NCBI GenBank assembly: GCA_041300305.1
Contig: JBFYUA010000118.1
Coordinates: 1-31,250 of the forward strand
From: Dehalococcoidia bacterium
GTDB lineage: Bacteria; Chloroflexota; Dehalococcoidia; GIF9; UBA5629
Direction: 5' to 3'
Length of the DNA stretch: 31,250 nt
Position numbers and translations under genes: made by a program. Positions 12,892 to 27,412 of this stretch are shown in pieces (within the stretch, counting starts at the first letter, position 1; every line of letters begins with the position of its first letter). Under the pieces are notes generated by a model. The model made no database searches. It was not told the origin of the DNA and saw nothing but the letters and a program-made list of their open reading frames with translations.

Positions 12892-13515
12892 ATGAAAAGT
12901 GGCTGGAGCAGCTTTTTCCCGTGCTCTAACTGCGGCTCACAGAATGTCACCGGCGCCGGTTACTGCGGCAATTGCGGGGTAAACCTGTATTATAATTGCC
13001 CCGAGTGCCAGGGGTGGGTGGATGCGACATCCTCAAATTGCCCCAACTGCAGGGTAAAACTCGATTGGCCGGCAGGCGACTTCCGTGCCAAACCTCCATC
13101 CGCTGTCATGCTGCTGCTGCTGGGCATTGTTATGCTGGCCATCGGCGGTGTCTACCTCATCGCAAATAATTCAGATTCCGCTAACGCAGTTTCTCATAAA
13201 ACAGTCAACGCCACGTCCTCAACTCCTGCTTCTAATCCGTGGCCGGAAATAAACGCCGCGCAACCGTTGATCCCGTATCAATACAACCCGCCTTCGATTG
13301 ATAATACGGATACCGCAGATTATCCGGGTTACAGCCCGGCTTCAGCGTCCAACCGGGATACGGCCTTCTACGACCCGGTTATTATCATACCGGCCAACAC
13401 ACCACCGGTGGCCGAAACCGGTATGAATAGCCCGCAGGGCCGGTCTTACCTGGACACTGTTTACCCCACCTGGGGCCATTGCTCAGGCGGCCGTTGCCGC
13501 AGTATTACACAATAA
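12892..13515 (+). CDS. Double zinc-ribbon, single-TM protein with P/T/N-rich tail
   Basis: Four CxxC pairs (CSNC, CGNC, CPEC, CPNC) ending in WP, TM SAVMLLLLGIVMLAIGGVYLIA, C-terminal WGHCSGGRC. Confidence 0.8.
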   Translation: MKSGWSSFFPCSNCGSQNVTGAGYCGNCGVNLYYNCPECQGWVDATSSNCPNCRVKLDWPAGDFRAKPPSAVMLLLLGIVMLAIGGVYLIANNSDSANAVSHKTVNATSSTPASNPWPEINAAQPLIPYQYNPPSIDNTDTADYPGYSPASASNRDTAFYDPVIIIPANTPPVAETGMNSPQGRSYLDTVYPTWGHCSGGRCRSITQ

Positions 13516-13555
13516 CGTCCCGCCAACAGCTTATCTCATGGGTATTGCGCTGTAG

Positions 13556-13735
13556 TTACCTGCTCTTCTGGACGCTGTCCAGGACAACTTCATAAAGTTC
13601 AAGCTTTTCTTTCTTGAGCAGGGCCTCTATCTTCTTTTTAATGGCCAGCGCCTTCTCCATGGATTTGCTCTGTTCCTCGTCCGGAAAGGTTGCCTGTACC
13701 TTAATATGGGCCGTGTTAAACCGGGCGTGTGTCAT
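13556..13735 (-). CDS. Small hypothetical protein (59 aa), absent from the ORF track
   Basis: MTHARFNTAHIKVQATFPDEEQSKSMEKALAIKKKIEALLKKEKLELYEVVLDSVQKSR. Strong SD AAGGAGGT 8 nt upstream; 41 nt downstream of the glpX stop. Confidence 0.75.
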   Translation of the reverse strand: MTHARFNTAHIKVQATFPDEEQSKSMEKALAIKKKIEALLKKEKLELYEVVLDSVQKSR

Positions 13736-13776
13736 TTCACTTTACCTCCTTGTAATCCGCCATGACCGTGGCCAAT

Positions 13777-14778
13777 TCAATGTACTTCAAAGAAACTTAG
13801 TTTGTCCAGCCGTTCAAAGTTATGCTGGGCTTCAATCCAACGGACAGTGCCTGAACGGCCGCGCATCGCTATGGACTGGGTCGACGCCCCTCCGCTAAAG
13901 TAGCGGACGCCCTTCAACAGTACGCTGCTGCTGATGCCGGTAGCTGCGAAAAATACATCGTCACTGTCTATCAGGTCCTCCGTTTTATAGACCTTATCCA
14001 CATCGATACCGCCGGCTGCGGCTGTCTCTCTTTCCCCGCTATCACGCGGCCAGGCCTTGCATTGAATAGCGCCCCCGATGCAATGGATTGCCGCAGCGGA
14101 GAGCACACCCTCCGGCGTGCCTCCGATGCCCATGAGGACATCGACCTCCCTGTCGGGCAGGGCCGCCTCGATGCTGGCCGCGATATCGCCATCGGAGATC
14201 AATTTGACCCGGGCGCCGGCGCTCCTGATATCTGCTATCAACTGCTCGTGGCGCGGCCTGTCCAAAACAACCACGGTAAGCTCGGATAATTTTCTTTTCT
14301 TGGCTGCGGCGATATTTTTCAGGTTTTCAGCTACCGGTGCATTGATATCGATACAGTCTTTGGCCTGTGGACCGGTGACGATTTTATTCATGTAAACAAA
14401 ATGCCTTGGCCAGTGCATGGTGCCCCTGGCCGAAAGCGCCACAACGGCGATGGCCCCCGGCAGTCCCCTGGCAACGAGAGTGGTGCCGTCGACAGGGTCA
14501 ACGGCGATATCCACCTTTAAATCCGAGCCGCCGCCGATATGCTCCCCAATGAATAACATGGGAGCGTGGTCCTTTTCCCCTTCCCCTATAATGACGATAC
14601 CATCCATCGCAACATAACCCAAAACATAACGCATGGCAGCTACGGCTGCCGCATCCACCTTTATCTTATCGCCCCTGCCCAGGTAACGGGCTGATGCCAG
14701 GGCTGCAGCTTCAGTAACCCGCACCAGCTCCATGGCAATATTACGTTCGATTGGCATATCGGATTTTCTGGATTTCAT
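13777..14778 (-). CDS. glpX: Class II fructose-1,6-bisphosphatase
   Basis: ELVRVTEAAA, IGEGEKD, DIAVDPVDGT, GIGGTPEGV, DVFFAATG. Confidence 0.95.
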   Translation of the reverse strand: MKSRKSDMPIERNIAMELVRVTEAAALASARYLGRGDKIKVDAAAVAAMRYVLGYVAMDGIVIIGEGEKDHAPMLFIGEHIGGGSDLKVDIAVDPVDGTTLVARGLPGAIAVVALSARGTMHWPRHFVYMNKIVTGPQAKDCIDINAPVAENLKNIAAAKKRKLSELTVVVLDRPRHEQLIADIRSAGARVKLISDGDIAASIEAALPDREVDVLMGIGGTPEGVLSAAAIHCIGGAIQCKAWPRDSGERETAAAGGIDVDKVYKTEDLIDSDDVFFAATGISSSVLLKGVRYFSGGASTQSIAMRGRSGTVRWIEAQHNFERLDKLSFFEVH

Positions 14779-14907
14779 ATACTGCTCTTCACCTGCTCCC
14801 TATTCATACGACTACTGTCATTGCTGCGAAATAACCACGGTAAGTCTACATCTGATATGCCCCGCATGGCAAAGGTCCGTTCAGCGGAGTGCAATACCCT
14901 GCCGGAT

Positions 14908-14936
14908 TTGCTATTTTATGTTAAGTAGGGTATTAT
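14908..14936 (+). promoter_or_regulatory. Sigma70-type promoter TTGCTA-N17-TATTAT
   Basis: Hexamers at 14908-14913 and 14931-14936, upstream of the ORF at 15006. Confidence 0.5.
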
Positions 14937-15005
14937 TATATTGAAGCCGCAATTCAAGACAGTCCGTTTTACTTACAGCAGCAAAATACTGACGGGGGTA
15001 ATTTC

Positions 15006-15293
15006 ATGTCAATCAATCAATTCGCAGATATCAGTAAAGACCTGTTCAACCAGATCAAGTATATTGAAAGCACGGTAAAGGACGATTTATTCAAAGAAGC
15101 GGCCAGGCTGCTGTCAGCCGCTGAAGAAACCTGCGGAAATCTTGAATCTGCGATGGCACCGGATAACCAGGTACAAACGAAAATAGTGAATAACCGCCGG
15201 CTGGAAATACACTGGCTGCACGATGAAATCCAACAGGGTTTAAGCAAAAAGAACAGCAAACCCATCAAACGGCGCAAGACAAGCAGCAAATAG
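15006..15293 (+). CDS. Hypothetical helical protein with basic C-terminal tail
   Basis: 95 aa, GGGGG SD, own promoter, helical amphipathic pattern, tail KKNSKPIKRRKTSSK. Confidence 0.65.
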   Translation: MSINQFADISKDLFNQIKYIESTVKDDLFKEAARLLSAAEETCGNLESAMAPDNQVQTKIVNNRRLEIHWLHDEIQQGLSKKNSKPIKRRKTSSK

Positions 15294-15373
15294 TAATTGT
15301 ATCGCGGCCGGGACCGGCGCCATGGCTGCCAACCGCTTTTTCAAGACGGCAGTCCAAAAAATGTAGACCCCTG

Positions 15374-15949
15374 CTAAATTTTGCGGAGGAGCACGGCCAT
15401 GCTCATGGATACCGCTGGTTCGGCATCTATCACAAACCCTTCCTGTAGTGCGGTTGATACGGTTTTCTTGAATTCCGCCCGGGTGACATGCAGCCTGGGT
15501 TCCGCAATTAATAACGTGCCCGACGGTTTAAGGGACTCATTTATCTCCCGCAGAAATTTATCCCGTTGGGCGACCTCATGGACCATCCAGAAGGTCAGGG
15601 CAAAATCAGCCGCCATGGTTAAGCCCAGGCTATTTTCTGTACACCTCTGAAACCGCATTCTACTATCCAGCCCGGCTTTTGCGGCCTTATGCCTGGCAGC
15701 TTCCAGCATCCGCGCCTGCATGTCAACGCAAATAACCTCACCATCTTGCCCCACCAGCCGTGCCAGTGGTAGGGAGAAATATCCCATACCGCACCCTATA
15801 TCCAGCACAGTCTGTCCCGGCTGCACCAGGCCCCTTAACATCAAAGCGGGATCCTGAATTAAGCGCCTGAGCGGATTATCAAAAGTAAAGCATAGCCACC
15901 ATGGGCAGGTATGACGCTCCCTGAAGAGCACTCTGTCAATAAATTCCAT
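15374..15949 (-). CDS. Class I SAM-dependent methyltransferase
   Basis: Motif I VLDIGCGMG, motif II VICVD, ADFAL...WMVHE, LKPSG. Confidence 0.88.
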   Translation of the reverse strand: MEFIDRVLFRERHTCPWWLCFTFDNPLRRLIQDPALMLRGLVQPGQTVLDIGCGMGYFSLPLARLVGQDGEVICVDMQARMLEAARHKAAKAGLDSRMRFQRCTENSLGLTMAADFALTFWMVHEVAQRDKFLREINESLKPSGTLLIAEPRLHVTRAEFKKTVSTALQEGFVIDAEPAVSMSMAVLLRKI

Positions 15950-15957
15950 ACCGACAC

Positions 15958-15966
15958 ATCATATCA
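15958..15966 (-). promoter_or_regulatory. Extended -10 TGaTATGAT 8 nt before the methyltransferase ATG
   Basis: Minus strand reads TGATATGAT-GTGTCGGT-ATG, with no SD. Confidence 0.5.
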
Positions 15967-15967
15967 T

Positions 15968-16792
15968 TTAATTATGAACCGGAGTTTTTCGATGCCGCCT
16001 TAAAAACTCGAGAATTATCTTGCCGCTTTCCTCCGCCGAGTCCGAGATAAACCCATGCCCGGCGTTTTCCAGTATCACCAGCTCAGAACCGGGTATCCGG
16101 GAAGCCAGTATCCGTGAATTCTCGAACGGTATAAGCCGGTCCTTATCGCCGCAGATAACCAGGGTCGGCGCCTTAATCTGCGGCAGGCGGTCATAGCTGT
16201 CGAAACTCAAAATGAAATTCCCCTGGCTTGTATAGCCATGAGGCGGCGTGGGATGATCAGTGGTATGCGCCACATAGCGTTTGACGGCCTCCGGGTGCTT
16301 ATCAATAAAATCCTGATTCCACAGCCATGGTATGGTGGATAAGGCTTTTTCCTCATTGGAAAGTTTGGCCCGGCCCGGGTCGAAAAGAAACGCTGTTGCC
16401 TCCGGCGTCGACCTGACAGATTTGGGACCTCCGCAGGTCGTGCAACCTAAAATAAGGTTTTTCACCCGCCCCGGGTAGCGCAGAGTAAACTCCTGTGCAA
16501 TCATGCCTCCCATGGAGACGCCGAAAATATTTGCGGCGCCAATACCAATGGCATCCAGTAACCCGATGATATCCCCGGTCATCATTTCAGCAGTGTAGGG
16601 TATTTCGGGTTTATCACTCCTTCCGGTGCCCCTATTATCAAACAATATTACGCGGTTCTCTTTGGCCAGCCTGTCACGGATGACGAACCAGTGTCCGGAG
16701 TTCGAACCATAGCCCATGATCAGAAGCAAAGGCTCCCCTTCACCGTTAATCTCGTAATGCATATCGATATCACCAATCTTCGCAACAGGCAT
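15968..16792 (-). CDS. Alpha/beta-hydrolase (enol-lactonase/esterase-like)
   Basis: LFDNRGTGRS, nucleophile GVSMGG, acid GDKD, His AGHG. SD GGAGG. Confidence 0.9.
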   Translation of the reverse strand: MPVAKIGDIDMHYEINGEGEPLLLIMGYGSNSGHWFVIRDRLAKENRVILFDNRGTGRSDKPEIPYTAEMMTGDIIGLLDAIGIGAANIFGVSMGGMIAQEFTLRYPGRVKNLILGCTTCGGPKSVRSTPEATAFLFDPGRAKLSNEEKALSTIPWLWNQDFIDKHPEAVKRYVAHTTDHPTPPHGYTSQGNFILSFDSYDRLPQIKAPTLVICGDKDRLIPFENSRILASRIPGSELVILENAGHGFISDSAEESGKIILEFLRRHRKTPVHN

Positions 16793-16865
16793 CGGCAGAC
16801 CTCCTTATTTCTATTCAATTCACCATCGCGGTGGAGCGCCAGGGATCCCCCGGACAGAAAACTGC

Positions 16866-17330
16866 CTATTCTTCCAATTCTTCGTTTAGTGCCGCAATAT
16901 TAGCGATTTTACCCGTAGTAACCTGCAGGGCCACGTGGGTCTGGCTCTTCCTTACACCTGTTATCTTGGGCAGGTAATCCTTGAGAAATTTGGCCATGCC
17001 GGCGGACGATTCGAACCATGCGCCAAACAGGATATCGAACGGACCGGTGCAAAGCGCTACGAAGTCCACATTGCTACAACTGGCCAGTGACCGGGTAATA
17101 TCGTCTACGTGAGGCGCCTCAACCTCCAGCAGGATAAAGGCCCTTACACTGTATCCCAGTTTGGCCGGGTCAGGTATAACCGACCAATTGATTATGCCCT
17201 GCTGTACCAGGCGGATTATCCTTCGCCTCACCGTTTTTTCGCTCACCCCCAGCTTGCGGGACAAATCAATATTGCTCTGCCGCGCGTCGTTAGTCAACTC
17301 ACCGATCAGTTTACTGTCCAACCTGTCCAT
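16866..17330 (-). CDS. Lrp/AsnC family transcriptional regulator
   Basis: LDSKLIGELTNDARQSNIDLSRKLGVSEKTVRRRI HTH followed by a RAM domain (CTGPFDI). Confidence 0.92.
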   Translation of the reverse strand: MDRLDSKLIGELTNDARQSNIDLSRKLGVSEKTVRRRIIRLVQQGIINWSVIPDPAKLGYSVRAFILLEVEAPHVDDITRSLASCSNVDFVALCTGPFDILFGAWFESSAGMAKFLKDYLPKITGVRKSQTHVALQVTTGKIANIAALNEELEE

Positions 17331-17337
17331 GAATCCA

Positions 17338-17346
17338 ATTATAACA
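17338..17346 (-). promoter_or_regulatory. Extended -10 TGtTATAAT 7 nt before the Lrp ATG (leaderless)
   Basis: Minus strand reads TGTTATAAT-TGGATTC-ATG. Confidence 0.65.
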
Positions 17347-17563
17347 TGGCGAGATCCGGCGACAATGTCTACTGTGTGTTCCCCCGGGAAGCAACAGCAT
17401 CCAACATTAATTCGGCAGGAGAAATTTTTTACCGCTGCCCTTTTTACTTTTTTCGGAACCCTTTGGCAAAAGCATGCCCCGGGGAATTCTCAACAACGCT
17501 GCCGAAGTACCATTATCGGCAATATAGCAGCATTTTATGACCGTTATTAGACATGCTTGTCCC

Positions 17564-17597
17564 TTGACAACGTCGTTTTATGTGCATACTCTATAAT
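17564..17597 (+). promoter_or_regulatory. Promoter of the acyl-CoA dehydrogenase pair: TTGACA-N17-TACTCT with an overlapping TATAAT
   Basis: TTGACA 17564-17569, TACTCT 17587-17592, TATAAT 17592-17597. Confidence 0.6.
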
Positions 17598-17629
17598 AGA
17601 ATTAGGCCTGTATGCATTTAGGGGTGACC

Positions 17630-18835
17630 ATGGATTTTGGCCTGGGGCAAAGAGAAGAAGCGTTACGGCAAGAGGTCCGTGAGTTCGCCGAGCGCGAGAT
17701 ACCGGACAGTTGTATAGTCAATTTTCTTGACGAAGAAAGCCGTGACGAGGATTGGACTTTCAGCCTTTCCATTTCTAAAAAGCTCGCTGACAGAGGGTGG
17801 CTGGTTATGGCATGGCCCGGGAGATACGGAGGGCGGGACGCTTCCCCCCTGGAGCAGATAGTTTTTGCCATGGAGTCTGCTTACTGGGGGATCCCCGGGC
17901 TTTCGATGGGAGTAAGCGGCACGGGCTGGGTTGGCCCCTCCCTGATGCTCTATGGCAACGAAGAGCAGCGGCAGAAATATCTCCCGGCAATAGCCTCCGG
18001 CAGTCCGGACGGCGTCTGGTGCACAGGTTACAGCGAACCCAATGCAGGATCGGATTTTGCCAGTATCCGGACGAAGGCCGTGCGGCAGGGCGATGAATAC
18101 ATAATTAACGGCCAGAAGGTCTGGACAAGCTGCGCCCACAGGGCGAGGTGGTGCTGGCTAGCAGCTAAAACCAACTCCAACGGCGGAAAGCCGCAGGACG
18201 GCATAAGCCTGTTGATTGTAGACATGAAAAGCCCGGGCATAACCATTAAGCCGCTGCTCAACTACAGCGGCGAACACATATTCAATGAAGTTTTCTTCGA
18301 CAATGTGCGTGTGCCGGCGGCGGACCTGGTAGGTGAGGAGAACCGGGGCTGGTACCAGCTGATGAAATCACTGGCCTACGAACGTCACAGTTTCGGCGGC
18401 CAGTCCTATGGACTCGGCAAGCGGATATTATCCAGTCTGATCAGATATGCTGGAGAGACAAAACGCAACGGCAGGCTGATGGCCAACGACCCCATAGTCA
18501 GGCACACGCTGGCGGACATGGCCGTCGAACTGGAAACGCTCAAGATGTTTATCTATGAGATTGCCTGGAAACTGGGCGAAGGGACAGTCCCTGTATACGA
18601 AGCTTCCAGGAACAAGTCTTTTGCCGATCACCTGCTGGAGCAGATGGCCCTGGCCGGGACCGAAATCCTGGGGGCCTGCTGCCAGGCAGGGCAATATTCC
18701 AGACAGACCCGGTTGAAAGGCCTGATACAGCGTCAGTACCTGATGTCCCCGGGAACAGCTATCGCGGCCGGGACCGATGAGATTGAAAAGAATATCATCG
18801 GTAAGTTTAAGCTCGGCCTGCCCAGGTCCTATTAG
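17630..18835 (+). CDS. Acyl-CoA dehydrogenase, catalytic subunit (FadE26/FadE29-like)
   Basis: WPGRYGG, CTGYSEPNAGSD, NGQKVWTS, FNEVFFDNVRVP, helix-G Glu in LAYER, C-terminal IAAGTDEI. Start set at the MDF ATG after the SD GGGGTG. Confidence 0.9.
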   Translation: MDFGLGQREEALRQEVREFAEREIPDSCIVNFLDEESRDEDWTFSLSISKKLADRGWLVMAWPGRYGGRDASPLEQIVFAMESAYWGIPGLSMGVSGTGWVGPSLMLYGNEEQRQKYLPAIASGSPDGVWCTGYSEPNAGSDFASIRTKAVRQGDEYIINGQKVWTSCAHRARWCWLAAKTNSNGGKPQDGISLLIVDMKSPGITIKPLLNYSGEHIFNEVFFDNVRVPAADLVGEENRGWYQLMKSLAYERHSFGGQSYGLGKRILSSLIRYAGETKRNGRLMANDPIVRHTLADMAVELETLKMFIYEIAWKLGEGTVPVYEASRNKSFADHLLEQMALAGTEILGACCQAGQYSRQTRLKGLIQRQYLMSPGTAIAAGTDEIEKNIIGKFKLGLPRSY

Positions 18836-18852
18836 CCGCAAGAGGTTCCAAC

Positions 18853-20028
18853 TTGAACTTCAACTTCACAGAACAACAGAATATGCTCAGGGCCATGGCC
18901 AGGGAGTTCCTGGCCGGCGAGTGCCCCAAATCCAGAACCCGTGAACTGGAGAAAGACGTGAAGGGCTATGATCCCGGCACGTGGAAACGCATGGCGGAAT
19001 TAGGCTGGATGGGCCTGCATTTGCCAGAGGAATATCAAGGCAGCGGCGCCGGTTTGGGGGACATGGTTGTCCTGATGGAAGAGATGGGCCGCAATATACT
19101 GCCTGGGCCGTTTTTCTCTACGGTGGCGCTGGCCGCCTTACCTATCATGGACTTCGGCAGCGTGGACCAGCAGGCCAGGTACCTGCCCGGCATAGCGAGC
19201 GGTGAAACGGTCTGGACACTGGCAATAAATGAGGAACTGTCTGGCAGCGGGTTTGCGAATGTCCGGACATCGGTGCGGCCGGCGGACGGGGCTTATGTGC
19301 TTAACGGGAAAAAAACGTTCGTGCCCTACGCCAATGTGGCGGACTATATGCTGGTGCCCGCACGCATGAGTAACAGCAGGGCCCTTGAAAAGGGGCTAAC
19401 GTTATTTATTGTTGATATGAAGCAACCCGGAGTCGAAACCGCCGTTATCCCTACGATTACAGGGGAGACATTGTGCCAGGTTAAATTTAAAAACGTAAAG
19501 CTTGGCGGCAACGATGTGCTGGGGAAGACGGGCACTGCAGAAAACATGCTCGCGCAGCTCCTGGATAAGGCCGCGCTGCTGAAATGCGCTGAGGTATCCG
19601 GCGCCTGCCAGGCAGTGCTTGAAATGACCATTGCCTACGCCAAAGAAAGGCAGCAGTTTGGCAAGCCGATAGGTACCTTCCAGGTCATCCAACACAGGCT
19701 GGTGGATATGCTGATGCAAGTGGAGGGGCTGCAATATCTCGTATACCAGGCTGCCTGGCTTATGAGCACCGGCGCAGACTGCGCCGCGCAGATCGCCATG
19801 GCGAAAGTAAAAGCCAATAAAGTGTACCAGTGCGTGGCCCTCGACGGGATCAAGATCCACGGCGCAATAGGGTTTTCCATGGACCATGACATAGGACTGT
19901 ACTACAGGCGCGTCCTGGCGTCCAGGTTCCTCCCCCATGATACCGGACACTACCTGGAAAAGGTAGCCGAAGGGATCGGGCTTCGATCGATAGATAAGGG
20001 AAAAAAATCAGCAAACAATATCAACTAA
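18853..20028 (+). CDS. Acyl-CoA dehydrogenase, partner subunit (FadE27/FadE28-like)
   Basis: YAKERQQFGKPIGTFQVIQH and HGAIGF motifs are present; the SEP..GSD and C-terminal GT.EI motifs are absent. TTG start with AGAGG SD. Confidence 0.88.
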   Translation: MNFNFTEQQNMLRAMAREFLAGECPKSRTRELEKDVKGYDPGTWKRMAELGWMGLHLPEEYQGSGAGLGDMVVLMEEMGRNILPGPFFSTVALAALPIMDFGSVDQQARYLPGIASGETVWTLAINEELSGSGFANVRTSVRPADGAYVLNGKKTFVPYANVADYMLVPARMSNSRALEKGLTLFIVDMKQPGVETAVIPTITGETLCQVKFKNVKLGGNDVLGKTGTAENMLAQLLDKAALLKCAEVSGACQAVLEMTIAYAKERQQFGKPIGTFQVIQHRLVDMLMQVEGLQYLVYQAAWLMSTGADCAAQIAMAKVKANKVYQCVALDGIKIHGAIGFSMDHDIGLYYRRVLASRFLPHDTGHYLEKVAEGIGLRSIDKGKKSANNIN

Positions 20029-20209
20029 AGCACCTGCGATACCGGCGGATGCCGGGCAACCACCTCGAGCGGGTGTCAAAGCCATGCTTCCCGCAGGACC
20101 GGTTATGGACATTATAAACCAGTATGCCTGACGTTGTGGTTTAGACTTGCTGGTGCAGGCGACTTGGTTGCTATACTGCCACGTCAGGTAAGCCACCCAA
20201 AAATTATTT

Positions 20210-20241
20210 AACAGACAGTGCTATAATGCCGGATGTCTGTT
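20210..20241 (+). promoter_or_regulatory. Extended -10 (TGCTATAAT 20219-20227) enclosed by a perfect 8-bp inverted repeat AACAGACA-N16-TGTCTGTT
   Basis: Read directly upstream of the corrinoid protein gene. Confidence 0.55.
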
Positions 20242-20307
20242 CATTCTATGTAATTTGGACTGTAATCAACTCCGTTGATATCACTATAACTTATTATAGG
20301 AGGAATC

Positions 20308-20940
20308 ATGTCAGATCTCGCCCATGCCATAGCGGACCTCAAGGAAGACGATGTCAAGAAAATCGTGCAGGACGAACTCGCCTCGGGCATAAATCCAATG
20401 TCGATAGTGGATGAGTGCCGACGGGGCATGGAAATCGTCGGGCAACGCTACAAGGATAAAGAGTATTTCCTGGGCGAACTGATCATGTCCGGCGAGATTT
20501 TTAAGGAGGCCATGGCGACGATTGGGCCCAAATTGAAAGCGGGCCAATCGGGAAAACCGGTCGCCAGGATGGTGCTCGGCACCGCCAGGGGAGATATACA
20601 TAACATCGGCAAGGATATCGCAGCCACGCTTCTTAATGCCGCCGGCTTCGAAATCTACGATGTGGGTACAGATGCAGCCCCCGAGGTCTTTGTTAACAAG
20701 CTGAAGGAAACAGGCGCGCCGATACTGGGCATCTCCGGCCTGCTCACACCTTCCTTTGAGTCCATGAAACAGACGGTCCAGGCACTTGAAGCAGCGGGCC
20801 TTCGGGACAAGGTAAAGGTCATCATCGGAGGCGGCATCGTCACCGAGGTTGTGCGAAAATACGTAGGCGCCGATGCCTTCACGGACGACGCCCCTGAGGG
20901 AGTCGAACTGTGCAAGAAACTGGCAGCGGAGGTGAAATAG
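20308..20940 (+). CDS. Methyltransferase cognate corrinoid protein (MtbC/MttC/MetH B12-binding type)
   Basis: Cap domain (GMEIVGQRY...YFLGELIMSGE), base-off DxHxxG motif GDIHNIGK, SGLLT, IIGGG. SD AGGAGG. Confidence 0.93.
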   Translation: MSDLAHAIADLKEDDVKKIVQDELASGINPMSIVDECRRGMEIVGQRYKDKEYFLGELIMSGEIFKEAMATIGPKLKAGQSGKPVARMVLGTARGDIHNIGKDIAATLLNAAGFEIYDVGTDAAPEVFVNKLKETGAPILGISGLLTPSFESMKQTVQALEAAGLRDKVKVIIGGGIVTEVVRKYVGADAFTDDAPEGVELCKKLAAEVK

Positions 20941-22095
20941 ATGATCAGGGAAACCATGACCCCCACCGAACGCACATGGGCCGCTATCAAGCTTGAGCCG
21001 TGTGACCGTATTCCCGTCGCTCCTCTTATGGACGTTATGTTCCCATCGAGGCATAAGGGCATGACGGTGGCCGAGGGCATCTCCCATCCCCGCAGGGGCT
21101 TCCAGGCCATTGTAGACACCTTTGATGACGTTGGCGGCTGGGATGCCATGATACTGCCGGGGTATAGCCTTCCCATACCCCCCAGCATTGCTGCCGTTAT
21201 GCAGATAGTCATCGGTGATACCAGGTACCCCGGGAAGGAACCGGGCTTCTCTGAAGACTCCTCGCCCCAGTTCATAGAAAAAGAGCTCCTTACGATCGAT
21301 GACTACGATGAGATAATAAAGCTGGGCTGGACAGGATTTGCCGAAAAGAACCTCGGCCGCTTTTTCCCGCTGGACCCGGAGCTATTGCTGGCCTGGAGCA
21401 GAAGGCAAATGGACCGCTACAGGACCGAGGGGGAGATATGGAAGGCGCGCAACATACCTTCGTTATGCGGGGCAATAGTGATGTCCCCGCTTATGTTCCT
21501 CTCCACCAGGAGGTCGCTCGTTTCGTTTACACAGGATCTTTACCGGTTCCCCGACAAGGTCCAGGCTGTCATGGACGCCATGATCGACGACCTGATCAAA
21601 TTTCCCATCGAAGCGGCCCGTGCAACCGGTATACCAGGTGTACAGCTGATATTGGAAAGGGGCGGCTGTTTCTACTATCCATTGAGAATATTCGAACGCT
21701 TTGAGTTCCGCTATATGAAAAAGATGATCGAGGCATTTGCCGCCGAAGGACTGATAACGATTATGCATTTTGACCAGGACTGGACGCTCAACCTGCCCTA
21801 CCTCCTCGACCTCCCGAAGAAAATGTGCGTCTGCGAACTGGACAGCACCACCGACATCTTTAAGGCCAAGGAAATACTCAAAAACCACATGTGTATCATG
21901 GGAGACGTTCCTGCCTCACTCAGCAGCATCGGCACAACCGGGGAGATGCAGGCCTATTGCGAAAAGCTGATCGACCATATCGGTAAAGGGAAGACGGGGT
22001 TCATCCTTAGCACCGGGTGCACGATCCCATTCGATGCTAAATTCGAGAATTTCCAGGTCATGATCAATTCCGTAAAAAACCATTTGCCGCAGTGA
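20941..22095 (+). CDS. Uroporphyrinogen decarboxylase-fold (MtaA/CmuA/COG0407) corrinoid-dependent methyltransferase
   Basis: MTPTER..AA..EPCDRIPV, MHFDQDW, CIMGDVP, FILSTGC. Directly coupled to the corrinoid protein gene, with an internal SD GGAGGTG. Confidence 0.85.
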   Translation: MIRETMTPTERTWAAIKLEPCDRIPVAPLMDVMFPSRHKGMTVAEGISHPRRGFQAIVDTFDDVGGWDAMILPGYSLPIPPSIAAVMQIVIGDTRYPGKEPGFSEDSSPQFIEKELLTIDDYDEIIKLGWTGFAEKNLGRFFPLDPELLLAWSRRQMDRYRTEGEIWKARNIPSLCGAIVMSPLMFLSTRRSLVSFTQDLYRFPDKVQAVMDAMIDDLIKFPIEAARATGIPGVQLILERGGCFYYPLRIFERFEFRYMKKMIEAFAAEGLITIMHFDQDWTLNLPYLLDLPKKMCVCELDSTTDIFKAKEILKNHMCIMGDVPASLSSIGTTGEMQAYCEKLIDHIGKGKTGFILSTGCTIPFDAKFENFQVMINSVKNHLPQ

Positions 22096-22098
22096 TTT

Positions 22099-22245
22099 CA
22101 CGGGTCAAGGCAGACACACCTGCCTGACCGGTGTGCGAGTGCGGACAATCATATCGATTAATAGCAGTATGACCCGCCATTACCATTGGCATACCGGGTT
22201 GCCGGGATCCTTAAGGTTAATGTCGAAGATATATTTAAAGATGAA
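22099..22245 (+). pseudogene. Degenerate XRE/Cro-like HTH regulator relic
   Basis: Frame pieces GSRQTHLPDRC / VRTIISI / QYDPPLPLAYRVAGILKVNVEDIF resemble XRE 'GLTQ..LA...GVS..TI.SIE.G.Y.PSL.LAY.IA..L.V.VE.IF'. Two frameshifts, no start. Confidence 0.5.
22101..22130 (+). terminator. Stem-loop after the methyltransferase stop (no U-tract)
   Basis: GGTCAAGGCAG-acacac-CTGCCTGACC pairs 10 bp with one bulge. Confidence 0.35.
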
Positions 22246-22291
22246 AGGCCGCCGGGTGAATTCAACAGCTATCAACCGGCATTGCAGGCCA

Positions 22292-23533
22292 TTACCTCAT
22301 CACAGGGACGCTGTCTATCGTGTCCATTCTTTTAATAGAGCCCAGTTTAAGTGACGCCAGGAAGTCCAGGCAAACAGGCCTGTAGTTAACCAGTTCGGCG
22401 CTCACGTTGATCGTCTTCCTGTCACCATTAATAAAACAATACTCTTTCAAGTCGTTGTTGTGTTTGTGCCCGTGGATTACCCATCCGTTCCAGTCTATGG
22501 GCAGCCTGTCGGGATCATGAGTAAGCAGGAAAGTGTATCTGCCGCATTTTATGACATCGTATTCCTTCGCGTCCCTGACACCGGCGTCGTGCCCGCCCCT
22601 GATAATTTTTTTCTTCCCACTTAGTCTCCCCAGCCAATAATCTGCCGGCCTTGAGCCCTCTCCAAAAGACAGGTCGCCCAGAAAATAAACCTCGTCATTG
22701 CCGACAATGTTATTCCAGTTATCTACCAGCACGCTATTCATTTCATCGACATTTGATGGAACAAACGGCCTGGCGCAATACTCAATGATATTTGCATGGT
22801 CCAGGTGCAGGTCGCTGATAACGTAGGGCGGCCTTCTATCGGCCCCGGGCCTGGCGCCCTCGGTGCCTGTGGCGATCCTGAACAGCTTCAAAGTCCTGCC
22901 CCACTCATCAGTGGCCAGGGATTCCGACCTGGAAAGCAGCCTCTGTTGCAGGAAATCATACTCACAGAGTATTTTAGATTGATCATTCAAAAAGGTAACC
23001 CGCAGGGCGTTCAGCGGTAAATAAAAATACCGCATGTGGTGATCTTCAGCATCCGCCGCGTGGGCTGAGAATTTCGTGGCCAGGGACCCATCGCTGCACA
23101 GGTAGGGCCATATGCGTTCGAACTCCCTGCTGTCCAACTTGTAGGACAGGGTAGCATGAAACAGGAAATCTTCTTCTTTATCAAAATGCTTCGTCTCGGG
23201 CACTATCCTGAGCAGACGCTGCGCCAGTTCCCGGCGGAACTTTATGAACTCGGGAGAAGGTACAATATTAAAATAAACGACCTTACCGTTCCTGCCGTTT
23301 ATCCAGCGGAAGCCGTCAATCAGGTATGGCAGAAATGAATATCTCTTGCCGACGGATAGCAGGACCTCTTTCACACGTTCCACCTGCCTGTAGTCAGCCG
23401 AAAAACTGCCATACAGGGATATATGCGGGACCCTATGTATTTTATCCACTGGCGTACCGCTGAGCCGGTGGACCTGAAGAATGGACTGGGTCAGCTTCCG
23501 CTTCCCCGGCCCTATGCGTATCTCAATTAACAT
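22292..23533 (-). CDS. Fusion of a 2H phosphoesterase (2'-5' RNA ligase-like) and a calcineurin-like metallophosphoesterase
   Basis: 2H motifs PHISL (H37) and FHATL (H126). MPP motifs SDLH, LGD, RGGHD, LTHD, IHGHKH and the 'YCARPF...EMN..LV.NWN' subfamily signature. Confidence 0.85.
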   Translation of the reverse strand: MLIEIRIGPGKRKLTQSILQVHRLSGTPVDKIHRVPHISLYGSFSADYRQVERVKEVLLSVGKRYSFLPYLIDGFRWINGRNGKVVYFNIVPSPEFIKFRRELAQRLLRIVPETKHFDKEEDFLFHATLSYKLDSREFERIWPYLCSDGSLATKFSAHAADAEDHHMRYFYLPLNALRVTFLNDQSKILCEYDFLQQRLLSRSESLATDEWGRTLKLFRIATGTEGARPGADRRPPYVISDLHLDHANIIEYCARPFVPSNVDEMNSVLVDNWNNIVGNDEVYFLGDLSFGEGSRPADYWLGRLSGKKKIIRGGHDAGVRDAKEYDVIKCGRYTFLLTHDPDRLPIDWNGWVIHGHKHNNDLKEYCFINGDRKTINVSAELVNYRPVCLDFLASLKLGSIKRMDTIDSVPVMR

Positions 23534-23613
23534 TTACCGGTCTTGCTATGGCCGTCCTACTATCTCAACGCGTGCATTTTCAGGACGGCCGCTATCCTTT
23601 GCTGAAATGAATT

Positions 23614-25197
23614 TCATTGTACTACAGTCACCGTGACAATGGCCCTGTCAGTGCCGGCGCTGTTTATGGCGGTCAGGGTATAGTCGGTAGTTACAGAGGG
23701 TGATACCAACTGCGAAAATTTTGAAGCTGGAATGCCGATGCCCTGATCGATGGTAAATAAAGCGGCCCCCTTGATAGACCAGGAGAGGCTGGACGTTCCA
23801 CCAACAGTAATACTGCCGGGCACGGCAGTAAAGGATTTTATTACCGGTGCTGTACCGTCTGATGACTTGTTCACCGTAACCGTAACTTCTGCCGTTTCCG
23901 TACCGAAGGTGTTGACAGCCGATAATTTATAGGTGGAGTCAGTAGCGGTGGGGATTACCATCGTCCAACCTGAAGCCGGCACGGCACCGACATCCGGGCT
24001 GATCGAGACCGCCCTTGCCCCGCTAACGGCCCAGGTCAGGGTTATATTGTCTCCCAGCGTGATTGAATTACTACTTGCGGAGAAAGTTTTTATCGCGGGT
24101 GGGTCTTTCGTGATAGCAGCGCCCGGCGCATTGGTTGCCTCGACTGTAACCGTGACTGACCTGCTCACCTTGCTGTTTGCATTTTCGGCCGTCAATGTAT
24201 AGATGGTGGTTGCAGTAGGGGTTACTTCCTTAGAACCCTTTGGCGGCACGGCGCCAACGCCCTGGTTGATATAAATTGTAGCCGGGCCAATAATGTCCCA
24301 TGCCAGGGTCGAACTCTGGCCGCCACTGATAAATGCCTCGCTTGCACTGAAGGTGGTTATGATAGGTGCGCTCGATTTTGTTACCGTGAGCGTTGCCAAT
24401 GCCGTGGGGTTGCCTGCGCTATTAGAAGCCGTCAGTGTGTAGGTGGTAGTTAAAGACGGTGACACGCTTTGCGTCCCGGCCGATGATACGGTCCCTATAT
24501 CGGGGTTGATGGAAACAGACGTTGCCCCGGTAACACTCCATGACAATATGGCTGATTGCCCTGTGAATATGCTGTCAGTATTAAAACCGAATTTGTCTAT
24601 GGACGGCGGGGCAGCGGTAACCTTAATAGTTACAGACTTGCGCACAGAGCCGGACATATTATTGGCAATCAGGGTATATGTTGCCGTTGATTCGGGAGAT
24701 ACGGTCCGGCTTCCGTTAGAAGAAACCGTCCCTATACCGGGACTGATAGAAACCGAACTTGCCCCGGCAACATCCCAGTGCAAAGTCGCCTCCTGGCCCG
24801 GCGTGATCGTCGAGGCGCTGGCATCAAAGGACGACACAACCGGCGCTACGAAAGGCCTCGAGATTTCCCCCCACATGGCGATGACTGCTCCGGCAAACGC
24901 AGTAACTATGACCACGCTAATAGATATTTTTATAATCGTTTCCTTGTAGACCTGTATTCGCTGCAACAAACCCGGTCCGTCATCACTATCTTGCGGATGG
25001 TCCAGGTCCTGATCTCCCGGAACTGCCGATTGATCATCGAAAGAGGCCTGTTGGCCGGGATACTGACTTTGAGGTGATTGGTTTTGAGGTTGAGTCGGCG
25101 ACGGGGGCCAATTAAAAACCATCTTACAGTTGGTGCAATACGCCTGGCCGAAAGCCACCGGCGCTCTACAGTTGGGACAGGAATACATTTGCTGCAT
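23614..25197 (-). CDS. Zinc-ribbon / TM / five tandem Ig(PKD)-like repeat surface protein
   Basis: CPNC..CTNC..WP, Q/P/D-rich linker, TM at about residues 88-110, five repeats of about 80-90 aa. Confidence 0.85.
   Translation of the reverse strand: MQQMYSCPNCRAPVAFGQAYCTNCKMVFNWPPSPTQPQNQSPQSQYPGQQASFDDQSAVPGDQDLDHPQDSDDGPGLLQRIQVYKETIIKISISVVIVTAFAGAVIAMWGEISRPFVAPVVSSFDASASTITPGQEATLHWDVAGASSVSISPGIGTVSSNGSRTVSPESTATYTLIANNMSGSVRKSVTIKVTAAPPSIDKFGFNTDSIFTGQSAILSWSVTGATSVSINPDIGTVSSAGTQSVSPSLTTTYTLTASNSAGNPTALATLTVTKSSAPIITTFSASEAFISGGQSSTLAWDIIGPATIYINQGVGAVPPKGSKEVTPTATTIYTLTAENANSKVSRSVTVTVEATNAPGAAITKDPPAIKTFSASSNSITLGDNITLTWAVSGARAVSISPDVGAVPASGWTMVIPTATDSTYKLSAVNTFGTETAEVTVTVNKSSDGTAPVIKSFTAVPGSITVGGTSSLSWSIKGAALFTIDQGIGIPASKFSQLVSPSVTTDYTLTAINSAGTDRAIVTVTVVQ
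23617..24843 (-). repeat. Five tandem beta-sandwich protein repeats
   Basis: Consensus P.I..F.A....I..G....L.W.V.GA..V.I.P.IG.V...G...V.P..T..YTL.A.N..G......V.V recurs five times. Confidence 0.85.
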
Positions 25198-25387
25198 AAT
25201 AGGTTACCTGTATCAAAGTTGTAGCTATGAGTATATTATACACATAGTGTAAACTTTTAATCCTATGACCTTGCCCTATAATTAGTATCTTACCTGACTG
25301 GCGTTCAAACGTGAGCAGTAATAATATTACCAACCACCGGGGCTGAATTTCGGGCATGTTTTGGGTTATTTGCGGGGTCATAGCAGC

Positions 25388-25417
25388 TTGACTAACAAAT
25401 TTGCAGGGTTGTACAAT
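25388..25417 (+). promoter_or_regulatory. Sigma70-type promoter TTGACT-N18-TACAAT
   Basis: Hexamers at 25388-25393 and 25412-25417, about 155 nt upstream of ATG 25572. Confidence 0.5.
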
Positions 25418-25571
25418 TGGCCGCACGCACAAAAAGGTTCGGCGTCAGCTTTCTGAAGTCGCTATAGGAAGTCCCGGTTTAATTCGTCTTTGGCCGGCCA
25501 CTATTTTCTTTCTATCCCTTCCTTCAGTTACAGCAGAAAGCCGTCCTTCTCATAGCTGATATGGGGATAAC

Positions 25572-25982
25572 ATGAAAAAATGCAGGGAGTGCCAGCATGA
25601 TATAAGTGAACAGGCTTTATCTTGCCCAAAATGTGGTGCTCCCTATCCAGCCAGGGAGAAATGGGATGGGTGGGGATATGAGTATAAAAGCAAAACAATT
25701 ATCTTGGGGTTACCCCTGCTTCATATCTCGTTCAAATATCACCCGAATAGAATGCCGGTACCTGCCAAAGGAATAATTGCCATTGGGCAGTTTGCTATCG
25801 GCATTATAAGTATTGCTCAATTTGGTATAGGTATTATCAGCATTAGTCAATTCACAATTGCCGCCTACGCCCTGGCGCAATTTGCGATCGCATATTCATT
25901 GGTTGCGCAGATTGGATTATATGTTGACCAGGGATATGGGCAGCTTGTCTGGAACATCATTGAACTGATAAAAAATTTATAG
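25572..25982 (+). CDS. Zinc-ribbon protein with GYEYKS..LGLPL.HI segment and 10-residue hydrophobic repeats
   Basis: CREC..CPKC, then GIIAIGQFAI/GIISIAQFGI/GIISISQFTI/AAYALAQFAI/AYSLVAQIGL. SD GGGGA. Confidence 0.8.
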   Translation: MKKCRECQHDISEQALSCPKCGAPYPAREKWDGWGYEYKSKTIILGLPLLHISFKYHPNRMPVPAKGIIAIGQFAIGIISIAQFGIGIISISQFTIAAYALAQFAIAYSLVAQIGLYVDQGYGQLVWNIIELIKNL

Positions 25983-26145
25983 GAAATCAAGGATAATGTC
26001 TCATCGAAGAGTATGTAAGTGTTGGTGGCGAGGCTGGTGACGGTACTCCTTCAATATGCCGCGAAACCAGATAATCCTGGATATACCAGGTAAATATTTC
26101 ATGCCTTAGAAATCCCGTGGTAACAATATACTATAAGGAGTATCC

Positions 26146-27078
26146 ATGAATATAAAATCATTTTGGGGAAATTACAAATTCATCATTATTCTGCTTGTGA
26201 TTATGATAATCGCAGCGGTCGTCGTTTTATCAATGGGACAAACATCAATAGTCGGAGTTCCTCACATGGATAACCTACTGATGATTGTGCTTATAGTTGT
26301 AGGTTTGGCAGCCGGTCTCCTGGGCGGATGGATTGGTACTGGTGGTTGTAGCGTAATGCTTCCGGTTTTACACTTCTGGCTTGGTTTTCCTGCATCCATA
26401 GCTGTTGGCACGACACTTTTCGCAGTTATTTTTACGGCTGTATCAGGCGGCTATGGACATTTTATGCGGAGGAACGTGGATAAACGTGTTGCTCTATGGA
26501 TGGGAGGCGCAGGAATTATCGGTGTATTACTTGGTTCATGGCTTTTCACTTTTATTTCAAGCCAGTCAGCTCTTTTAGGTTGCATTATTGGTATTGTTTT
26601 CTTGTGGCCTGCCATTAGAATGAGCTGGGAAGGAATCACTGGTTTTAAGAAAAACCAGTCTGCATCAGGGACACCCGCAGCTCCTCAAAGCCAATCCATT
26701 AAAGGCCATCCTGCAAAATTGTCAATATTTGGAGGTGGCGTTGGGGTACTGACCGGGGTTGTGGGTCTCGGTGGCGGATATGCTCTCGTACCTGGTCTGA
26801 TATACCTATTTGGTGCGGCTGTTTATATAACCATGGGTACCTCTTTAGCGATTATGGTGCCGATGGCTATCGTGGGTGGATCAATTAAGCTCGCTCAGGG
26901 ATACGTTTTTTTAAGTGCTGCTCTACTTCTGGCAATAGGTACGATCGTAGGAGCTCAATTAGGAGCAGCTACAATAACAAAATTTAAGCCAAATGTATTA
27001 AAATTGATATTTGGTGTCTATTTCCTTTACGTAGCAATTAAATTTATCGGCAATTATCTCGGGATCGCCGTTTGGTGA
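26146..27078 (+). CDS. TauE/SafE (TSUP) family sulfite exporter-like membrane protein
   Basis: Two halves with GxGGG-type loops (IGTGGCSVMLP, VGLGGGYALVP), AVGTTL, MGTSLA. SD AAGGAG. Confidence 0.88.
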   Translation: MNIKSFWGNYKFIIILLVIMIIAAVVVLSMGQTSIVGVPHMDNLLMIVLIVVGLAAGLLGGWIGTGGCSVMLPVLHFWLGFPASIAVGTTLFAVIFTAVSGGYGHFMRRNVDKRVALWMGGAGIIGVLLGSWLFTFISSQSALLGCIIGIVFLWPAIRMSWEGITGFKKNQSASGTPAAPQSQSIKGHPAKLSIFGGGVGVLTGVVGLGGGYALVPGLIYLFGAAVYITMGTSLAIMVPMAIVGGSIKLAQGYVFLSAALLLAIGTIVGAQLGAATITKFKPNVLKLIFGVYFLYVAIKFIGNYLGIAVW

Positions 27079-27086
27079 ATTACTTG

Positions 27087-27129
27087 AAACATGCAGAGGC
27101 TGCTAATAGAAGTAGCCTCTGCATGTTTT
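27087..27129 (+). terminator. Intrinsic terminator with an 18-bp stem
   Basis: AAACATGCAGAGGCTGCT-aataga-AGTAGCCTCTGCATGTTT with one G-U pair, ending in TTTT, 8 nt after the tauE stop. Confidence 0.8.
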
Positions 27130-27321
27130 ATGCAAAGTCGTGTGCCAAGATGGCAAAATTTATAAAGCCACCCTGGCATTGCAGATAATAGAAGTTCGGG
27201 AACTGTCTTGAGTGGTATTGTCTTTAGCTTCAGACTTTTGGATAGTGGGGCATTATGACTGTCCACGAACTACTATTCGAGAAAAAGTCGTTGGTTCTGG
27301 CTTTGCAGCAGTAATAGCAGT

Positions 27322-27333: not shown

Positions 27334-27412
27334 ATACCACCCATTCGTAACCCTGTTCCCAACCACACCTTGATTCCCTCAGGCAGCAAAGGTACCGAAA
27401 GAGCCTGCCGGT

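Follow-up and report, generated by a model that had tools for sequence, protein, structure and literature searches.

Two Dehalococcoidia membrane proteins with Trp-ended zinc-ribbon heads as members of a Chloroflexota-expanded class of predicted type-II proteins

Membrane proteins in which an N-terminal zinc ribbon precedes a single transmembrane (TM) helix abound in Chloroflexota, Bacillota and archaea, and to our knowledge the role of the ribbon is known for almost none of them. Pfam describes such ribbons with the models DZR (PF12773), Zn_ribbon_3 (PF13248) and Zn_Ribbon_1 (PF13240), which cover single or paired Cys4 units with CxxC-x10-CxxC spacing. A related architecture is found in the ZAS anti-sigma factors (zf-HC2), which carry an HxxxCxxC motif in a helical anti-sigma domain and are encoded beside their own ECF sigma factor. 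[quoted passage not shown] For TcaA of S. aureus, the model places the zinc finger within the cell and, past one TM helix, most of the protein outside it (PMC10328498). The membrane-attached CdpC of Haloferax volcanii combines zinc ribbons with a long disordered linker and its ribbon binds FtsZ1 (10.64898/2026.07.16.738847), so that ribbon heads can be docking modules.

Two proteins of this kind are encoded in the window, the whole stretch of 31,250 nt that was analysed, namely protein A (207 aa; 12892-13515, + strand) and protein B (527 aa; 23614-25197, - strand). The two peptides quoted in the initial annotation are exact translations of 12991-13071 (+) and 25105-25185 (-), and the modular layout that it described, in which an N-terminal cytoplasmic head is joined through a linker and one TM helix to C-terminal regions that differ entirely between the two proteins, was supported by prediction, and this kind of head recurs on many bodies. 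Its statement that no description of such proteins exists did not hold, as Pfam places heads of this kind in DZR, Zn_ribbon_3 and Zn_Ribbon_1 and the layout has been studied in Llmg_0524/0526 (PMC4628341) and TcaA (PMC10328498); A and B are ordinary new members of a known layout.

The N-terminal CX2CX10CX2C motif and the TM segment are common to A, B and the L. lactis proteins, which are likened here by motif alone, whereas the latter belong to Bacillota, carry other ectodomains and come from a three-gene operon. TcaA and the B. subtilis YvbJ-type proteins (COG4640) likewise have an intracellular zinc finger, one TM helix and an outer bulk, although the targets of TcaA, the Gram-positive cell wall and teichoic acid, have no evident counterpart for A and B. 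Membership of the TcaA family (NCBIfam NF053815, teico_TcaA, cutoff 550) was rejected, as the model found neither A nor B and matched only the third ribbon protein of the window, protein C, with 10.7 bits over residues 1-24. CdpC is comparable by layout, having a ribbon and a disordered linker at the membrane, whereas it is archaeal, lacks an ectodomain and is anchored by an amphipathic helix instead of a TM helix. The ZAS factors too cross the membrane once, binding zinc through an N-terminal domain in the cytoplasm and varying in their extracytoplasmic part. This identity was rejected for A and B, as the HxxxCxxC motif is absent from the ribbon proteins of the window, zf-HC2 has no match in them at E<=1 (Pfam) and a domain scan of the 25 other window ORFs found no sigma-factor domain.

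The head of protein A is a double zinc ribbon, since a further ribbon (F9-Y33, FPCSNCGSQNVTGAGYCGNCGVNLY; 12916-12990, + strand, with 12922-12975 also given) directly abuts the quoted one (Y34-P60; 12991-13071, +). The initial annotation had described a single ribbon in this head, and the quoted ribbon is real but the upstream one was overlooked. The whole head matches DZR with 33.3 bits over residues 11-53, against a gathering threshold of 27.3. The A family is narrow, with 27 relatives at 42-98% identity, and all four cysteines are invariant in it, as is the tryptophan at position +6 after the last cysteine (W59; 25/25), which is followed by proline (P60) in 96% of cases. In ribbon 1, the four cysteines, N18 and the +6 tyrosine (Y34) are 100% conserved, Y34 being both the +6 aromatic of this ribbon and the -2 aromatic of ribbon 2. 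A short linker leads to the TM helix (residues 71-91; 13102-13164, +), assigned from hydrophobicity and from an AF2 model (19-sequence alignment) of low confidence, with a pLDDT of 39, in which only this helix is usable. Beyond it lie a stalk rich in S, T, P and N and the putatively extracellular C-terminal Cys-loop motif SYLDTVYPTWGHCSGGRC (13444-13497, +), which is nearly invariant in the family. Three K/R residues occur in the 15 residues before the helix and one in the 15 after, which argues for a cytoplasmic N-terminus.

Protein B has a single ribbon (Y5-P31; 25105-25185, -) and its family is broad, with 664 relatives of which the named ones come from Dehalococcoidia and Chloroflexi MAGs. 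The four cysteines are again invariant and the +6 tryptophan (W30) is present in 72 of 72 relatives, whereas position 31 is proline in 43% and glutamine in 43%. Residues 3-26 align to positions 1-24 of the 26 in Zn_ribbon_3, and the score of 19.6 bits lies below the thresholds of Zn_ribbon_3 and Zn_Ribbon_1 (27 and 25 bits) although the cysteine motif is complete; B is not a DZR member (12.1 bits) because it holds one ribbon only. In the AF2 model (mean pLDDT 78) the ribbon is predicted at pLDDT 73-83 (residues 1-30) and has beta bridges at 5-6, 13-14, 20 and 27. The cytoplasmic linker (residues 32-87; 24937-25104, -) is rich in P, Q and D, is predicted to be disordered (pLDDT below 50 for residues 33-94) and ends in a conserved juxtamembrane GPGLLQxI stretch, with L77 conserved at 90% or more. 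It is followed by the TM helix (residues 88-112; 24862-24936, -; AF2 helix and hydrophobicity), which is flanked by three K/R before and one after. Each protein has one predicted helix, as claimed initially. The five Ig-like repeats that had been proposed correspond to five beta-sandwich domains in the AF2 model (residues about 120-193, 199-273, 279-353, 368-443 and 452-526; 23617-24846, -), with strands at pLDDT 85-95. Foldseek relates this ectodomain to the Ig arrays of titin I65-I70, Sidekick and DSCAM in the PDB (E down to 8e-16), and Pfam I-set reaches a summed 39.8 bits over the whole protein against a cutoff of 23.7, with no single stretch passing alone. The ectodomain is thus modelled as a tandem Ig-like fold with domains of about 80 aa, the family assignment being loose.

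The tryptophan extends well beyond these two families. A genome scan with the pattern Y.CP.C-x10-C.NC-x5-W recovered more than 119 loci, where we estimate about one to be expected by chance; 85 of 119 lie in Chloroflexota, two MAGs contain at least five paralogues each, and the strict motif has no match in viral contigs. Among 767 x10-spaced ribbons in the best representative matches of a 32-position module profile, only 9% have tryptophan at +6, and hardly any single protein mixes ribbons with and without it, a pattern that sets the Trp-ended ribbons apart as a discrete subclass. The 3601 proteins that this profile finds among the representatives at E<=1e-3 are not a family size, because the top ranks are dominated by proteins in which 4-19 generic ribbons add up to scores that drown out the single W-type heads. 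On 86 related heads, DZR, Zn_ribbon_3 and Zn_Ribbon_1 were found 59, 57 and 42 times, respectively (E<=1e-3; best E 1.8e-12). These models stop before position +6 and therefore miss both the terminal tryptophan and the tyrosine that joins tandem ribbons. Such a +6 tyrosine was observed in 40 first-of-pair ribbons from other genomes, and in the listed pairs it occupies position -2 of the following ribbon. In a PDB sequence search with the module profile, the best real match was the C-terminal ribbon of 9sfa_A (positions 2-24), C2H2 finger matches covered only 'YxCPxCG', and no structure covering the tryptophan was found.

A TM helix follows within 150 aa in 71 of 88 N-terminal heads, with a median linker of 35 aa, and across these 71 the mean number of K+R is 2.62 before the helix and 0.77 after it. 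A, B and the class are accordingly predicted, from the helix and the positive-inside bias, to be single-pass type-II proteins (N-in/C-out). A catalogue of A-type heads was built from the genome scan and tblastn. Across the N-terminal heads of the class, the bodies include Ig-like repeats, FN3/purple-acid-phosphatase-N, tRNA_anti-like, CreD and TPR domains as well as many regions without a recognised domain. Proline stands directly after the tryptophan in 36-46% of the wider class (46% as against 10-31% for positions further down the linker), 'Q-Q' occurs at W+3/W+4 in 38-53% of heads, and an N-terminal 'MQQxY' recurs in most of the listed heads. The loops are also conserved, with 'APVAYGQ' in B-type and 'WVD' in A-type heads. 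This conservation, with that of 'Q-Q' and 'MQQxY', exceeds what the bare fold needs and hints at a specific binding partner, a point against the reading favoured below.

The heads of A and B had been presented as a shared 27-residue 'WP' module with identical spacing, and both points stand in part only. The spacing is indeed identical, but it is generic, as each of the four ribbons in the window has the CxxC-x10-CxxC pattern. Ribbon 2 of A and the ribbon of B share 10 of 27 residues (26.6 bits), and the B ribbon matches ribbon 1 of A nearly as well (8/25 identical, 21.2 bits). In an alignment of 69 class sequences, A and B are 31% identical through the eight residues required by the scan pattern plus V and P; with eight of the ten shared residues being those required, they define the class of more than 119 members. 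The likeness exceeds chance at class level, with the tryptophan invariant in both families, but it is no specific A-B relation, since each of the two heads is as close to any other class member as to its counterpart. 'WP' as a tag is not supported, since only the tryptophan is invariant and the proline varies from family to family.

A and B do not form a mutual system. In another MAG, their orthologues (L096 and L087) share a contig at a distance of about 8 kb, and glpX, which adjoins A, and the 413-aa ORF that adjoins B are both kept there. With conserved flanking genes and, in the window, unrelated metabolic genes separating A from B, their proximity looks like ordinary synteny, and a partnership was rejected. 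The families also differ in breadth (27 vs 664).

The reading that we favour, and hold to be fairly probable, is that A and B belong independently to a large Chloroflexota-expanded class of type-II membrane proteins in which the ribbon caps the N-terminus. The anatomy, the conservation pattern, the topology signal, the variety of ectodomains and the taxonomic skew are shown by the data. The ribbon unit comprises 25 residues, [YF]-x-C-x2-C-x10-C-x2-C-x3-hydrophobic-x-aromatic, present once in B and as two abutting copies in A. In tandem ribbons the closing tyrosine doubles as the opening aromatic of the next unit, and the last ribbon closes with tryptophan. This tryptophan may be the final core residue of the third strand of the ribbon, and hence a determinant of the fold and not a tag, with the proline after it marking the start of a P/Q-rich disordered cytoplasmic linker that runs to a basic juxtamembrane stretch and a signal-anchor TM helix. 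By analogy with Llmg_0526, the head is expected to bind one zinc ion per ribbon, and it is plausible that it folds fast and forms a small, stable cap in the cytoplasm, retaining the N-terminus on that side. Head and linker together may also provide unrelated surface proteins, such as the Ig-repeat protein (B) and the stalk with a Cys-loop tip (A), with a generic surface for docking or clustering.

The initial suggestion of a conserved cytoplasmic tag, either anti-sigma-like or for sorting and anchoring, leads to a reading in which one common partner recognises the ribbon and its WP end, and the variable ectodomains serve a single system as cargo or as sensors. This partner could be a machine for sorting or insertion, a part of the cytoskeleton or divisome, or a sigma factor that the head sequesters in anti-sigma fashion. 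The presence of one head class on many bodies, with several paralogues per genome, is consistent with this proposal, as are the conservation past the zinc ligands in the loops and the WPxQQ stretch and the precedent of CdpC and FtsZ1, in which ribbons and a disordered linker tether a partner (10.64898/2026.07.16.738847). We nevertheless consider it unlikely, given that proline is found in only 43% of the B family, that the A and B heads are mutually no closer than to the rest of the class, and that the 31-kb window encodes no sigma factor, FtsH or secretion ATPase and no other recurrent partner gene, next to the missing zf-HC2 signature; no candidate partner emerged, and the anti-sigma-like role and a dedicated system thus receive no backing from this locus. 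A narrower form, in which the Trp-ended ribbon, the P/Q-rich linker (WPxQQ...) and 'MQQxY' make up a lineage-specific docking module that connects many surface proteins to one cytoplasmic scaffold, or that clusters them through a multivalent linker, appears improbable. Candidate scaffolds would be cytoskeletal or divisome elements, as for CdpC with FtsZ1.

At the other extreme, A and B might simply be two generic zinc ribbons that share W-P by accident. Pfam sees only generic ribbon families here and places B under every gathering threshold, the module profile mostly retrieves generic multi-ribbon proteins over positions 1-24, and the A-B identities past the residues of the scan pattern are only V and P. 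Against this, the tryptophan, with a background of about 1%, is invariant in both families across 42-98% identity, and the discrete subclass defined by W at +6 is heavily skewed in its taxonomy and associated with a TM helix. With the +6 Tyr/Trp pattern and the all-or-none distribution of W, this reading is largely refuted and is quite improbable. We regard as very improbable that the Cys4 head senses redox state or metal, with oxidation or zinc loss switching the membrane protein during envelope or oxidative stress. A switch formed by four cysteines that face the cytoplasm is conceivable in principle, and the L. lactis study was motivated by this idea and found that deletion of llmg_0524 raised sensitivity to cumene hydroperoxide, but it also described the Cys-Zn complex as highly stable towards oxidants and put forward protein stabilisation as its role (PMC4628341). 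No redox genes in the window are tied to A or B.

A literature search on Dehalococcoidia zinc ribbons returned nothing relevant. At present, our results are an annotation refinement and do not describe a new system. They add a ribbon subclass whose terminal Trp lies past the end of the current Pfam models, tandem ribbons joined by a shared aromatic with a period of 25 residues, and a strong expansion of this subclass in Dehalococcoidia, where it heads many ectodomains. If the head were a common docking module, it would provide a handle on the surface organisation of uncultured Dehalococcoidia and would organise the envelope in cells that, at least in Dehalococcoides, are not known to have a peptidoglycan wall.

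Ribbon 1 of A fits the spacing of the RanBP2-type zinc finger (W-x-C-x2-C-x3-N-x6-C-x2-C), with F in place of W and the invariant N18, as a resemblance only; the assignment was rejected, zf-RanBP having no match at E<=1 (Pfam). The SYLDTVYPTWGHCSGGRC motif recurs behind other double-ribbon heads (loci L008, L099, L105 and L115), with a variant in L019, L025 and L076. The third ribbon protein reported at 25572 was confirmed as protein C (136 aa; 25572-25982, +), which is divergently transcribed relative to B and consists of an N-terminal Cys4 ribbon (25581-25634, +) without the +6 tryptophan, followed by a repetitive hydrophobic region. This ribbon scores 21.6 bits with the Pfam single-ribbon models, under the cutoffs of Zn_ribbon_3 and Zn_Ribbon_1 (27 and 25 bits), although its cysteine motif is complete, and JGI labels the relatives of protein C in its cluster 'uncharacterized membrane protein YvbJ'.

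Four Cys4 ribbons were found in the 31 kb window by a six-frame pattern scan, two of them in protein A (207 aa; 12892-13515, +), one in protein B (527 aa; 23614-25197, -) and one in protein C (136 aa; 25572-25982, +), the third zinc-ribbon protein of the initial annotation, which adjoins B in divergent orientation. That annotation had proposed a 27-residue ribbon module ending in WP, common to A and B. The two peptides it quoted are exact translations of 12991-13071 (+) and 25105-25185 (-) and their spacing is equal, but this spacing is generic because all four window ribbons are of the CxxC-x10-CxxC form. The N-terminal head of A is a double ribbon (12922-12975 and 12997-13050, +) whose upstream unit had been overlooked. 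A passes the Pfam threshold for DZR (PF12773; 33.3 bits, cutoff 27.3), B and C match single-ribbon families below threshold only, and the NCBIfam search of these proteins added nothing specific.

Ribbon 1 of A (12916-12990, +) reads F-x-C-x2-C-x3-N-x6-C-x2-C with N18 invariant, a spacing that we take to be the RanBP2-type zinc-finger pattern with Phe replacing Trp; no Pfam zf-RanBP match was found for it at E<=1. The ribbon of C has no Trp at the sixth position after its last Cys (+6; W59 in A, W30 in B) and is followed by a hydrophobic region of short repeats (…GQFAIGIISIAQFGIGIISISQFTIAAYALAQFAIAY…).

Scanning one genome per GTDB species for the pattern Y.CP.C-x10-C.NC-x5-W yielded at least 119 loci, the chance expectation being about one match by our own estimate. 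Among the matches listed, 85 of the 119 loci belong to Chloroflexota, mostly Dehalococcoidia, and the remaining ones are scattered over Bacillota, Bacteroidota and archaea, mostly as small proteins that carry the ribbon at their C-terminal end. The initial annotation had suggested counting paralogues and cataloguing C-terminal domains. At least five loci occur in each of two Dehalococcoidales MAGs, and the bodies behind the heads match Ig-like repeats (15), FN3/Pur_ac_phosph_N (7), tRNA_anti-like (2), CreD and TPR in Pfam, with many bodies lacking any Pfam domain. A TM helix lies within 150 residues after the head in 71 of the 88 N-terminal heads among the matches listed, with a median linker of 35 aa and post-TM lengths of 10-581 aa, and the modular picture of one kind of head with varied C-terminal regions is upheld. 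Lys and Arg in the 15 residues flanking the TM amount to 2.62 before it versus 0.77 after it, the positive-inside signature of a predicted N-in topology.

In Pfam the heads match DZR (59/86), Zn_ribbon_3 (57/86) and Zn_Ribbon_1 (42/86), and the class represents known ribbon families that have expanded. An exhaustive HMMER search with the module profile retrieved 3601 proteins (E<=1e-3); its best matches are generic multi-ribbon proteins aligning to profile positions 1-24 only. These best matches contain 767 x10 ribbons with Trp at +6 in 9%, and per protein the ribbons are almost entirely all-Trp or no-Trp. Because of this low and nearly all-or-none occurrence, Trp-ended ribbons are a discrete subclass; existing Pfam models end before the distinguishing +6 residue. 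The refuting condition named initially, a generic ribbon with neither WP conservation nor TM association, agrees with the Pfam assignment, but the Trp is invariant in the A and B families and the TM link is common.

The A family is narrow (27 proteins, 42-98% identity), with W59 invariant and P60 conserved at 96%. The B family is broad (664 proteins, the named members from Dehalococcoidia/Chloroflexi MAGs), and all 72 listed members with a retained N-terminus have Trp at +6, followed by Pro in 43% and Gln in 43%. Judged from these alignments, Trp alone is the constant feature of the WP end, the Pro being well kept only in the A family. Across the heads, Pro follows the Trp in 46% versus 10-31% at later linker positions, and Gln is found at W+3 in 38% and at W+4 in 53%; the P/Q-rich linker begins with this semi-conserved Pro, which lies outside the fold. 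In double-ribbon heads the +6 residue of the first ribbon is Tyr (40 cases), which in the listed pairs doubles as the aromatic residue two positions before the first Cys of the second ribbon, and the last ribbon closes with Trp (scan loci and A-family profile). Since the Tyr is shared between tandem ribbons and Trp stands at the last, the unit is a 25-residue repeat, [YF]-x-C-x2-C-x10-C-x2-C-x3-hydrophobic-x-aromatic, with aromatics at both ends.

Most Dehalococcoidia heads, both in the scan loci (L001-L119) and in another numbered set (P0183-P0309), start with M-Q-Q-x-[YF] right before the first Cys, a start from which the MKSGWSSFF of A departs. In many of them a P/Q-rich spacer with repeated QQMY lies between two Trp-ended ribbons.

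The ribbon of B shares 10/27 identities with ribbon 2 of A (BLASTP, 26.6 bits) and 8/25 with ribbon 1 (21.2 bits). A and B are 31% identical in a 69-sequence class alignment, the identical residues being the eight demanded by the scan pattern (Y, C, P, C, C, N, C, W), one Val and the Pro; many other heads in this alignment resemble A more closely, at up to 75% identity. With A as query, tblastn matched some 40 double-ribbon heads of other genomes (E<1e-5), and B-type loci were not among the matches. From these identities, the class alignment and tblastn, the two heads belong to one class with no special mutual relationship, so the claimed module survives as class membership but not as specific A-B kinship.

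The model of B (AF2, 47 sequences) has a mean pLDDT of 78. Its head (pLDDT 73-83) shows beta bridges at residues 5-6, 13-14, 20 and 27, a strand pairing compatible with a putative mini-core of Y5, V14, F28 and W30. A disordered linker (33-94) and a helix (88-112) lead to five beta-sandwich domains which resemble the Ig arrays of titin, Sidekick and DSCAM (Foldseek), in agreement with the five Ig-like repeats annotated initially. The model of A was uninformative (pLDDT 39), and no solved structure covering the Trp position was found. The B family also keeps a juxtamembrane cytoplasmic motif, GPGLLQxI..K (residues ~70-87; ~24937-24990, -), in which L77 is conserved at 90% or more; the rest of its linker is variable and of low complexity.

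The extracellular C-terminus of A closes with the nearly invariant motif SYLDTVYPTWGHCSGGRC (13444-13497, +), which matches no Pfam family. Similar ends were observed at L008, L099, L105, L115, L019, L025 and L076 as YLxxxxPxWGxCxGGxC or ...PxWGxPAAPDPNCPLCN, where they close double- or quadruple-ribbon-headed proteins with otherwise unalignable stalks.

The initial annotation knew of no description of such proteins, but the architecture had already been described. In Lactococcus lactis, N-terminal CX2CX10CX2C motifs have been studied in membrane proteins with one or two TM segments; the zinc complex they form withstands heat as well as oxidants, and the authors suggested that it has a stabilising role (PMC4628341). 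In the model of Staphylococcus aureus TcaA the zinc finger is intracellular, there is one TM helix and most of the protein lies outside the cell (PMC10328498), and in haloarchaeal CdpC a ribbon and disordered linker can tether cytoplasmic FtsZ1 to the membrane (10.64898/2026.07.16.738847). Neither A nor B qualified in membership tests for TcaA and ZAS, and the relatives of C carry the JGI annotation YvbJ. A literature search for a Dehalococcoidia expansion of these heads found no paper. A and B are new examples of an architecture that is known but poorly understood, and the Trp-ended subclass with its Dehalococcoidia expansion usefully refines the annotation but does not amount to a new system.

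The head probably caps the N-terminus of a signal-anchored type-II protein on the cytoplasmic side. Zinc would stabilise each cap, the Trp would be a core residue of the ribbon, and the linker would begin with the Pro. The specific functions would then reside in the ectodomains, a five-Ig surface protein in B and an S/T/P-rich stalk tipped by the conserved two-Cys motif in A. The main rival, a partner-binding tag, would account for the conserved loop residues, the conserved WPxQQ stretch and the frequent MQQxY start; it lacks any apparent partner, and we consider it unlikely. A pure chance likeness of the A and B ribbons is improbable, and a redox switch slightly more so. The anti-sigma-like role suggested initially was rejected: nothing favours it because neither a sigma factor nor FtsH or a secretion ATPase is encoded in the window, and a zf-HC2 motif is likewise absent. 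The initial observation is confirmed, and the anatomy, the conservation and the topology bias are demonstrated; the initial interpretation is supported in part, for the modularity but not for the specific A-B module, the constant WP or the anti-sigma role.

The window starts with a five-gene tetrapyrrole biosynthesis cluster (288-6258), a TetR regulator, a DEAD helicase, a PAS-GGDEF protein and a SpoU methylase, followed by DUF3096, a carboxylesterase and A. GlpX, methyltransferase and hydrolase genes, an AsnC regulator and two acyl-CoA dehydrogenases come after A. Next, a B12-binding-domain protein lies directly 5' of a URO-D-like protein (20308-22095, +), which looks like a corrinoid-dependent methyltransferase pair. 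A 413-aa ORF (22292-23533, -), directly downstream of B as also in L096, matches the 2',5'-RNA-ligase superfamily in its N-terminal third only; the remainder has no Pfam match at E<=1e-5 and contains HD…GHxH-like motifs. The window ends with B, C, TauE, TetR, an FMN reductase and an integrase fragment. In the final 6 kb (~25000-31250) G+C drops from ~0.52-0.58 to ~0.43-0.48, and this stretch, which holds C, TauE, TetR and the FMN reductase, may be acquired DNA because of this fall and the integrase-core (rve) fragment (29451-29867) near its end.

Another MAG has orthologues of A and B on a single contig (CAVWAG010000010.1; L096, L087), separated by ~8 kb, with identities of 66% for B, 88% for the 413-aa protein, 62% for A and 92% for GlpX. 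The flanking genes are the same and the spacing is roughly that of the window, which we read as ordinary conserved synteny across MAGs. Loci L010, L095 and L114 of other Dehalococcoidia MAGs each contain, within 8 kb, a pair of B-like Ig-repeat genes (~535 and ~655-675 aa) that look like tandem paralogues; the same loci contain a 65-79-aa ORF (stop-to-stop) with the ribbon LYCPRCMARVV.GERFCGNCG..L... The window sequence is also present in soil, sediment and lake metagenomes.
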